Source: a virus
Direction: 5' to 3' (one strand)
DNA length: 64,000 nucleotides
Virus record (IMG/VR): IMGVR_UViG_3300020473_000015
In this document: one piece after another, positions 7,024-8,567 of the stretch
How positions within the stretch are numbered: position 1 is the stretch's first letter
How the letters are laid out: each line of letters begins with the position of its first letter
The notes under the pieces: model-generated
Told to the model about the DNA's origin: nothing
Seen by the model: the letters and a program-made list of their open reading frames with translations, nothing else
Databases searched by the model: none
Program-made: the position numbers and the translations under genes

Positions 7024-7539
7024 ATGAATATATTTGCTATTGAAGGAACTGGTAATAATATTGATTGGGTTAAATCCGCTCAGTCACAAGATAATTATCG
7101 TGTAGTTAAGATGATTTTGGAATCTTGCCAGATGTTGTGCACAGTGCTCAATGAACAGGCAGGAGAACAAATTACACCTTATCGCTCTACACACAAACAT
7201 CATCCATCTACCAAGTGGGTTTGTAACTCATCAGCTAACTTTGAGGCTCTTGTTGAGCACACAATGGCGATGCTAGAAGAGTACACAGAGCGCTTTGGTA
7301 AAATACATAAATGTTTGTATGTGTTGGAAAAGTGTATGGATTTGTATGATCCGTCTCTTTTTCCCTCTAGCGAGCCAACACGATTGCCGTTAGCGATGCC
7401 TTATGAATTTCATTCTGACAATATTGTCGAATCTTATCGCAAATTTTATGCTTCAAAGCCGAGAATGCGCTATCCGAAAAATAAAATTCCGCAATGGTTT
7501 GTAAATTATCGCGGCGATAAAAAATACGATATTGTTTAA
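7024..7539 (+). CDS. pyrimidine dimer DNA glycosylase (DenV-like) family protein
   Basis: MNIF, VVKMILESCQMLCT, YRSTHKHHPSTKW, PLAMP. Confidence 0.75.
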   Translation: MNIFAIEGTGNNIDWVKSAQSQDNYRVVKMILESCQMLCTVLNEQAGEQITPYRSTHKHHPSTKWVCNSSANFEALVEHTMAMLEEYTERFGKIHKCLYVLEKCMDLYDPSLFPSSEPTRLPLAMPYEFHSDNIVESYRKFYASKPRMRYPKNKIPQWFVNYRGDKKYDIV

Positions 7540-7545
7540 AAAGTC

Positions 7546-7574
7546 TTGACAATTATAAAAATTTAAGATAGAAT
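7546..7574 (+). promoter_or_regulatory. sigma70-type promoter of the tRNA cluster
   Basis: TTGACA-17-TAGAAT. Confidence 0.7.
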
Positions 7575-7588
7575 GATTAAAATAAATT

Positions 7589-7672
7589 GGCCGAGTGGTG
7601 GAATGGTAGACACAACGGACTTAAAATCCGTTATCCGCAACGGGTGTGAGGGTTCGAATCCCTCTTCGGCTA
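7589..7672 (+). tRNA. tRNA-Leu(TAA)
   Basis: ACGGA-CTTAAAA-TCCGT anticodon arm, long variable arm, GAGGG-TTCGAAT-CCCTC T arm. Confidence 0.93.
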
Positions 7673-7677
7673 CATAT

Positions 7678-7867
7678 ACCAGGGTAGCTCAGGTGGTCAG
7701 AGCGCCGTTAGTAGGAAGCCAAAGGTCCACACACGGAATCGCGTTGCAAGCGCACGGGGAATCGCCCCCACCGTAATTAGTGGCGATTGGGTCTGAGGTG
7801 GAAACACCCATGCAAGGTGGATCTATGTACGAAGCGGAGGTCGTTGGTTCAAATCCAACCCCTGGTA
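7678..7867 (+). ncRNA. tRNA body with ~120-nt structured insert in the anticodon loop
   Basis: ACCAGGG/CCCTGGT acceptor, GCTC/GAGC D arm, CCGTT/AGCGG anticodon stem, GTTGG-TTCAAAT-CCAAC T arm; 7710-7832 lies between the anticodon stem halves. Confidence 0.8.
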
Positions 7868-7889: not shown

Positions 7890-8027
7890 ATGGAATTTTA
7901 TATTATTGCTTTGTTTGGTTGCGTCGGCGTTATTGGGTATGCATATCATATGATAAAGATGCAAAAAGAAATTGAAGTCTTAAATGATAGAATGGACGCT
8001 GAAATGCGAAGGTTCGAAGAAGAGTAA
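7890..8027 (+). CDS. small membrane-anchored protein
   Basis: AGGAGG SD; MEFYIIALFGCVGVIGYAYHMIK...EEE (45 aa, read manually). Confidence 0.7.
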   Translation: MEFYIIALFGCVGVIGYAYHMIKMQKEIEVLNDRMDAEMRRFEEE

Positions 8028-8126: not shown

Positions 8127-8567
8127 ATGAAAGTTGGCGATTGTTGGGAGTGCAATGCGACGTCAGTCGAAATTCACCATCATCATCCAGTGCCTCGTTC
8201 TCGCGGCGGCACCAAAACCGTTCCGCTGTGTTTAGAATGTCACGCAAAGGCACATCATCGCAAAAAACGGATGGCTTCGTCTATATTGACGAAAGAGGGC
8301 CTTGCACGCGCCAAGAAACGCGGTGTTGCACTTGGCAACCCTAAAATTACTGAGGTTGGAGAAAAAGGACGAAACACGCAAAAGAAACAGGCCGTAGCTT
8401 ATGCAAACAAAATTGAACCAATGCTAAGAAATCTTCGTAAACAAGGAATGTCTTTCGCCAGCATTGCAAAAACATTCAATGAAACCGGCATTAGCACTCG
8501 TCGTGGTGGTAAATGGCACGCAAGTACTGTCAGAAACTACTTCAATAAATTAGAGAGAAGTGCATGA
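8127..8567 (+). CDS. HNH domain fused to resolvase E-helix and Recombinase DNA-binding domain
   Basis: CWEC..HHPVPRSRGG..LCLECHAKAH; TKEGLARAKKRGVALGNP; IAKTFNETGISTRRGGKWHASTV; start moved downstream of the tRNA. Confidence 0.75.
   Translation: MKVGDCWECNATSVEIHHHHPVPRSRGGTKTVPLCLECHAKAHHRKKRMASSILTKEGLARAKKRGVALGNPKITEVGEKGRNTQKKQAVAYANKIEPMLRNLRKQGMSFASIAKTFNETGISTRRGGKWHASTVRNYFNKLERSA

Follow-up and report, generated by a model that had tools for sequence, protein, structure and literature searches.

The window (the whole 64,000-nt stretch of DNA that was analysed, IMG/VR record IMGVR_UViG_3300020473_000015) comes from an uncultured, marine, T4-like phage that carries genes for UvsX, a gp32-like SSB, DnaB, RNR and DenV, and whose closest cultured relative is only ~33% identical (UvsX). 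ARAGORN calls the tRNAs Arg(tct), Leu(taa) and Met(cat) on the flanks of a segment that its default run on the window leaves uncalled. This segment, at positions 7678-7867 on the plus strand, is a complete class-I tRNA body in which acceptor, D, anticodon and T stems are all present, while the two halves of the anticodon stem (CCGUU 7705-09 / AGCGG 7833-37) are separated by 123 nt (7710-7832) rather than the normal 7. The inserted domain of ~105-120 nt is sited at the front of the anticodon loop. G+C content is 55% in the element versus ~36% in the surrounding genome region; the discriminator in the window is A7867, and CCA is not encoded. The features of the locus are as follows.

7546-7574, plus strand: sigma-70-like promoter TTGACA-17-TAGAAT, 11 of 12 consensus positions matching (a consensus match only), upstream of tRNA-Leu and the element
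7589-7673, plus strand: tRNA-Leu(UAA), 4 nt 5' of the element; the same neighbour is found in lineage D (see below)
7678-7709, plus strand: 5' half of the tRNA body, with acceptor strand 7678-84, U8 A9, D arm 7687-7703, G26 and anticodon-stem strand 7705-09; 100% paired
7833-7867, plus strand: 3' half of the tRNA body, with anticodon-stem strand 7833-37, variable loop 7838-42, T arm 7843-59 and acceptor strand 7860-66

The position of the promoter suggests that the element would be co-transcribed with tRNA-Leu. At gathering thresholds, Rfam 15 matched only the neighbouring tRNAs in the window; at E<=10 (window) or E<=5 (lineages D and E) the element drew spurious sub-threshold matches only, and no Rfam intron, ribozyme or riboswitch family matched it. 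The Rfam and ARAGORN scans proposed in the sequence-only reading thus leave the element unmatched and, by default, uncalled. Two small open reading frames follow it on the same strand. One, of 45 aa (7890-8027), starts 23 nt past the element behind a strong AAGGAGG ribosome-binding site; its N-terminal half is hydrophobic, and it matches no family. The other, of 146 aa (8127-8567), lies directly after tRNA-Met; its matches, to HNH endonucleases and to recombinase/invertase-type proteins, are weak, and it could be a free-standing gene of the homing-endonuclease kind in the tRNA cluster, comparable to segB in T4.

Homologues were collected from the nearest related record, from loci round the DenV-like gene, by pattern scans and with a covariance model (R1) run over whole related viral records. 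The DenV-like gene, which served as the anchor for finding relatives, encodes a pyrimidine-dimer DNA glycosylase (PF03013; phrog_624; window 7024-7539, plus strand), lies upstream of the tRNA-Leu promoter and is conserved in ~35 related contigs. The pattern used to scan metagenomes was too strict for members of the D-G type. The element was found in seven sequence lineages, on the window, seven IMG/VR contigs and three marine metagenome contigs (11 independent contigs), which include the following.

Lineage A: the window, G001, L078
Lineage B: L009, L077
Lineage C: L073, L076
Lineage D: L081/L099, a complete 190.6-kb contig
Lineage E: L102
Lineage F: L101
Lineage G: L100, a complete 284-kb contig

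Each carrier genome has a single copy. The copies of lineages A, D and G are placed within tRNA clusters, and the gene order Arg(tct)-Leu(taa)-element-Met(cat) is common to the window and L081. Model R1 found no copy in the complete relatives G004, G008 and G009, and blastn with three versions of the insert gave no match among cultured phages. Because the element, with its insert between the anticodon-stem halves, recurs in independent assemblies, it is neither an assembly artefact or chimera nor a one-off, two outcomes that the sequence-only reading had named as possible refutations.

Flanking genes are unrelated between carrier contigs, with DenV-like, thioesterase, phosphomannomutase, PP-loop ATPase and NUDIX genes among the neighbours. 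On the 284-kb carrier the PP-loop ATPase (L100:3416-4033, minus strand; 205 aa; PF01171, TilS family) is encoded just downstream of a tRNA-Lys/tRNA-Met(cat) pair; it is a candidate phage lysidine synthetase, which would convert a CAU tRNA to the reading of AUA. Within the element, lineages A and F share the tRNA body (83.6% identical), the discriminator, R7718 and the 3' junction, while the inner core of lineage A, its long GCAA hairpin included, agrees with that of B and C (93%). This mosaic pattern suggests recombination within the element between phages.

A curated alignment of the seven lineages formed the basis of the stem and covariation analysis. It bore out the complete tRNA body of the sequence-only reading, with stems that are paired and contain eight covarying pairs in total: three in the acceptor stem (where position 4-69 is A-U, C-G or G-C), two in the anticodon stem (both double changes in lineage G) and three in the T stem (up to five pair types). 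The only broken pair in the tRNA stems is C.A at 31-39, in two lineages. Among canonical tRNA features, a constant discriminator and the elbow (G18 G19 with U55 C56) are not kept: the discriminator is A in three lineages and U in four, G18 G19 are missing from the D loops of lineages E and F, and the T loop of lineage F has A56.

The sequence-only reading had found the body reminiscent of bacterial tRNA-Ile(GAU), a likeness that proved generic, and a comparison of its isotype with 64 phage tRNAs gave no clear winner. The alignment indicates valine instead. In all seven lineages [U/G]AC followed by a purine, a valine anticodon, precedes the 3' strand of the anticodon stem, and in five of them it does so at the exact canonical distance for positions 34-37. 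The valine identity set consists of A35, C36, A73, G20 and G45 (PMC9976931); of this set A35, C36 and G45 are kept, A73 is found in three of the seven lineages and G20 is not kept. In addition, A1-U72, the variable loop and lineage F's T stem recur in the tRNA-Val(UAC) of a related phage. Given the kept [U/G]AC-purine, G45 and this likeness, the body probably descends from a phage tRNA-Val(UAC), and recognition of the element by ValRS or another anticodon reader is possible.

The insert is more conserved than the tRNA that carries it. Mean pairwise identity is 85.0% in the insert core versus 72.8% in the tRNA body, and 69 of 102 core columns are invariant versus 33 of 69 in the body. The parts of the insert, in window coordinates, are these.

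7710-7722, plus strand: 5' junction A-GU-AGGAARCCNN; AGUAGGAA and CC are invariant in all lineages
7723-7728, plus strand: 5' strand of the outer helix, pairing with 7819-7824; all six pairs are kept, and 7725/7822 is G.U in six sequences and A-U in three
7733-7736, plus strand: 5' strand of helix Px, pairing with 7771-7774; a base pair that is A-U in lineages A-C is C-G in D-G
7741-7753, plus strand: GCAA-tetraloop hairpin, in lineages A-C only; the closing pair is U.G, or C-G in lineage C
7755-7770, plus strand: hairpin Hb (7755-59/7766-70), with a 6-8-nt loop of variable length that ends in UCGC
7771-7774, plus strand: 3' strand of helix Px, from the covariation alignment
7779-7793, plus strand: invariant block AGUGGCGAU-K-GGGUC, which contains GCGAU 7783-87
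7805-7819, plus strand: hairpin He' (7805-08/7816-19), with a 7-nt loop Y-AUGCA-R and three covarying pairs
7819-7824, plus strand: 3' strand of the outer helix; G7819 is ambiguously shared with He'
7825-7832, plus strand: 3' junction AYG-(0-2 nt)-AC-(1-2 nt), variable; it holds [U/G]AC and a purine at tRNA positions 34-37

Single-sequence folding energies are no better than those of shuffled sequences (z of -0.68 and -0.05), so that the case for structure is comparative, not thermodynamic. Five of the 18 proposed insert pairs covary, against a 1% background of random column pairs (seven lineages; the test is post hoc and ignores phylogeny), and this covariation falls in three insert helices. 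Two of the three covarying pairs of He' are double compensations private to lineage F, while in Hb the pair 7756/7769 is G-C, G.U or A-U and 7755/7770 is C.A, U-A or C-G. As judged from the alignment, the structure of the insert is under selection. This holds even in lineage F, which has lost the elbow (no D-loop GG, and A56) yet shows two compensatory double changes in the insert, so that there the insert is under selection where the elbow is not. Together, the homologues in seven lineages and the covariation in both body and insert answer a check that the sequence-only reading had proposed.

The comparison revises much of the fold proposed in that reading. In the stem AGGTCCAC/GTGGATCT (7723-30/7817-24) the lower five to six pairs are kept, with one change from G.U to A-U, while the two uppermost are disrupted in lineage F, and the partners with which 7816-19 covary are 7805-08. 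The stem AATCGCC/GGCGATT retains an invariant core, AUCGC/GCGAU, but most relatives have an extra U that interrupts its 7-bp form, and the core is best read as a pseudoknot formed from the loop of the covariation-supported GGGG/CCCC hairpin. A pseudoknot between the Hb loop (AUCGC, 7761-65) and GCGAU (7783-87), with 4-5 invariant complementary pairs, is thus likely; as neither strand varies, we infer this pairing from complementarity. The loop of Hb also holds a small indel: the window reads AAUCG at 7760-7764 where L003:3737-3742 reads AAUUCG, one U fewer than in the otherwise identical G001 and in lineages B and C. A further hairpin of the sequence-only reading, GGTG-GAAA-CACC (GGYG-GAAA-CRYY in the alignment), is unsupported because it has C.A in four of nine sequences. 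The GCG-rich hairpin of that reading, the one with the GCAA loop, is confined to lineages A-C and replaced in D-G by the 6 nt A-GNAA-M (AGNAAM).

At the ends of the insert, GU (7711-12) can pair with AC (7829-30). The 5' link tolerates a change in length, since in lineage D (L081:1501-1690, minus strand) 11 extra AU-rich nt (UUAUAUAAAGU) lie between the 5' anticodon-stem strand and the AGUAGGAA motif. Variation along the element is greatest at the 3' junction. The near-direct repeat reported at the two ends, GTAGGAAGC (7711-19) and GTACGAAGC (7827-35), is confined to lineages A and F, with weak counterparts elsewhere; it does not define the element. A target-site duplication or IS insertion was considered and rejected on the same distribution of the repeat. 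Three other structures were also discarded: a long AAUY/GAUK hairpin, which is broken in several lineages; an RNAalifold 'rod' model that fitted lineages A-C and is contradicted by D-G; and a hammerhead-like CUGA...GAAA, whose would-be core positions differ between lineages.

Taking these data together, we lean towards reading the element as a stable, non-decoding scaffold derived from tRNA-Val, with the inserted, partly pseudoknotted domain as its working part. The RNA would be transcribed with the neighbouring tRNAs from the sigma-70-type promoter, trimmed like a tRNA by RNase P and 3' exonucleases, and supplied with CCA by the host enzyme; tRNA-like trimming and CCA addition are proposed on the grounds of the intact, covarying acceptor and T stems and the place in tRNA clusters. 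To judge by its junctions it would stay unspliced, and it would presumably be kept out of the ribosomal decoding site, so that the tRNA-shaped part and the inserted domain could jointly bind or occupy a host or phage factor. We infer transcription, processing and lack of splicing alike from the DNA. No protein gene is conserved beside the element across the lineages, which counts against this reading with its proposed binding partner. More speculatively, the kept A35-C36-purine leaves room for recognition, even charging, by ValRS or another anticodon-reading protein.

The unspliced scaffold has to be weighed against excision of the insert, which the sequence-only reading had listed as a small intron or ribozyme alongside a tRNA-scaffolded ncRNA. 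In its simplest form the element would be a tRNA-Val(UAC) gene with a novel class of small intron, ~106-118 nt long and removed either by self-splicing through an unknown chemistry or by a protein endonuclease and an RNA ligase, and the tRNA so matured would serve an AT-rich phage in reading GUA/GUG. In its support, GU (7711-12) and AC (7829-30) are invariant, so that consistent excision would always give N-G-U-A-C-R-R, with anticodon UAC (U34-A35-C36 and then a purine). These invariant borders fit a conserved splice junction equally well and thus count against the unspliced scaffold. Moreover, the insert is conserved and structured, which recalls the 'highly conserved introns' of Lak-phage tRNAs (PMC6784885); the neighbouring Arg(UCU), Leu(UAA) and Met/Ile(CAU) tRNAs are of the kind that typically supplement AT-rich codons; and the 11-nt extra segment of lineage D would fit a variable intron 5' end.

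The details of the borders speak against excision. We applied the eight-site splice test of Williams 2020 to every lineage, and in none of the seven does any site combine U(-1), omega-G and a loop with U33 and R37. U(-1) and omega-G occur together only in lineages B, C, D and E (site 3); in B, C and D this site, after U7712, would give a loop of 7 nt, but the loop has G33, with C37 in addition in E. In lineages A, F and G the two do not coincide at any site. U33 would be restored only in B and C (GAC) and in E (GGA, C37), each time at a site that does not have omega-G. The G33 that the sequence-only reading had noticed after deletion between its repeats is found in all lineages wherever GU and AC are joined. 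Nor is the length of the predicted loop consistent, being 7, 7, 7, 7, 6, 7 and 6 nt across the lineages at the GU/AC borders (7 nt in five, 6 nt in two) and 8 nt with other borders. U33 is near-universal in tRNAs, and a varying discriminator and elbow are a further point against a decoding product.

The insert also does not look like a known intron, in agreement with the sequence-only reading, which had seen neither group I nor bulge-helix-bulge hallmarks. The Rfam group I model (Intron_gpI) gave no match at E<=10 in the window or E<=5 in lineages D and E. The supported helices (Px enclosing Hb, the loop pseudoknot, He' and the outer helix, together a partial fold) are arranged in an order other than the P3-P9 of a group I core. 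At 106-118 nt the insert is about half as long as the smallest group I introns known (Azoarcus, ~205 nt). On inspection there is no bulge-helix-bulge motif; the anticodon stem is adjoined by a 1x2 (or 1x1) internal loop and then the 2-bp GU/AC helix, and host signals are bacterial (a sigma-70-type promoter and a Shine-Dalgarno sequence). In intron mode ARAGORN does return a forced tRNA-Met(CAU) call with a 98-nt intron; it has C33, a long variable arm and a G.A mismatch, and we rejected it.

Overall, the absence of a canonical loop, the variable 3' junction, the unconserved discriminator and elbow beside a conserved insert, and the non-group-I topology of the supported helices favour the scaffold, and since no pair of sites restores a canonical loop we regard the small intron, the main rival, as unlikely, though it deserves real weight. 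A related proposal, that the insert is a new, very small (~105-120 nt) self-processing ribozyme, one that cleaves a phage pre-tRNA or frees itself from it by a chemistry that is neither group I nor group II, draws on the high conservation of the insert, which is expected of a ribozyme as well and to that extent counts against the scaffold; we consider this quite improbable.

Doubtful too is the view that the element is an aminoacylatable mimic for non-ribosomal use, charged by ValRS via A35/C36, with an insert that blocks the ribosome or docks an enzyme using the aminoacyl ester; it is a special case of the scaffold explanation with a distinct prediction, and we hold it to be a slim possibility. 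The correctly spaced [U/G]AC-purine of five lineages, the G45 of all seven and the intact acceptor stem would suit such a role, as would the precedent of the TYMV-type TLS-Val, in which A35/C36 can suffice for valylation and N73 is variable (PMC9976931). Against this, A73 is confined to three lineages and G20 is absent, pairs 3-70 and 4-69 are unlike those of E. coli tRNA-Val, the AC may merely pair with GU, and no gene for a cupin, a methyltransferase or another conserved enzyme adjoins the element. Finally, a decaying or selfish tRNA-Val pseudogene with an old insertion, functionless and persisting by hitch-hiking or recombination, would account for the sporadic distribution (with complete relatives that do not have the element), the non-canonical anticodon loop, discriminator and, in some lineages, elbow, and the mosaic between lineages, but it is very hard to reconcile with the compensatory changes in the tRNA stems and three insert helices, which show purifying selection on structure, or with 68% of core columns being invariant though the flanking genes are unrelated.

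Returning to the unspliced scaffold, we compared the element with RNAs already described. The Lak megaphages (Devoto et al. 2019, PMC6784885) have 'enigmatic', highly conserved and unclassified introns in their tRNA genes, which are the one printed precedent, and the nearest in print, for inserts in phage tRNA genes. In both cases the inserts of phage tRNA genes are near-identical between genomes and have no Rfam class. The likeness is drawn here from the published description: the Lak introns were called from tRNAscan eukaryote-mode predictions, without an analysis of structure or covariation, and their carriers are gut Prevotella megaphages, unrelated to the marine T4-like phages studied here, in whose element no excision gives a canonical loop. 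Group I introns in tRNA anticodon loops resemble the element in being structured inserts, and a U precedes one candidate 5' border; they differ from it in that it has no covariance-model match, no P3-P9 topology in its supported helices, an inconsistent omega-G and a product that would carry G33, and in size (106-118 nt versus ~200 nt or more). A 2014 review records group I introns of phages from protein-coding genes only (Hausner 2014, PMC3984707).

The T4 species 1 and 2 RNAs (rnaC and rnaD) are likewise small stable RNAs of unknown function in the tRNA cluster of a T4-type phage, and in rnaC a T arm and an acceptor-like stem can be recognised; unlike the element, they do not form a full cloverleaf, and model R1 matches only the tRNAs of T4, neither rnaC nor rnaD. 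The TLS-Val of TYMV (PMC9976931, PMC7749636) is a viral tRNA mimic that is non-decoding and has valine determinants of the A35/C36 type and a variable discriminator, and the element shares with it the A35 and C36 beside an anticodon-type stem. However, the TLS-Val forms the 3' end of an RNA genome, is pseudoknotted and has an ordinary anticodon-like loop, whereas the element is a free-standing gene of a DNA phage whose acceptor stem is a true one and whose anticodon loop houses a large domain. YrlA (Rfam RF02553) similarly joins a tRNA-like module to a second, protein-binding module but is circularly permuted relative to the element. An RF02553 match at the locus (22.5 bits versus a gathering score of 69) is spurious, as it spans the T arm of tRNA-Leu and the D arm of the element, and no Ro60/TROVE (rsr) gene was found in two complete carrier genomes (G003 and G041).

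Codon supply and evasion of defences that cut tRNAs are the usual explanations for tRNA genes in phages. In the present case the tRNA shape is retained, while a separately selected, likely pseudoknotted domain without a match among known RNA families stands in for the decoding loop. If unspliced, the element would be a natural counterpart of the laboratory 'tRNA scaffold' used for stabilising RNA modules and a new type of viral tRNA mimic. If spliced, it would represent a new intron class, and UAC would be a sensible extra tRNA for an AT-rich phage; were the insert a self-processing ribozyme, it would be smaller than any autonomous tRNA intron known so far and the first of its kind in a phage tRNA. 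Either way, the element is invisible to standard tRNA and ncRNA annotation.

A tmRNA was also considered and rejected: the element has C3-G70, not G3.U70, and a full D arm, and ARAGORN calls tmRNAs in related phages and none here. In these related phages the tmRNA genes lie beside the tRNA cluster (L013:858-1177; L085:2629-2964, minus strand; L086:373-794), and their tags end in ...LAA or ...ALAA.
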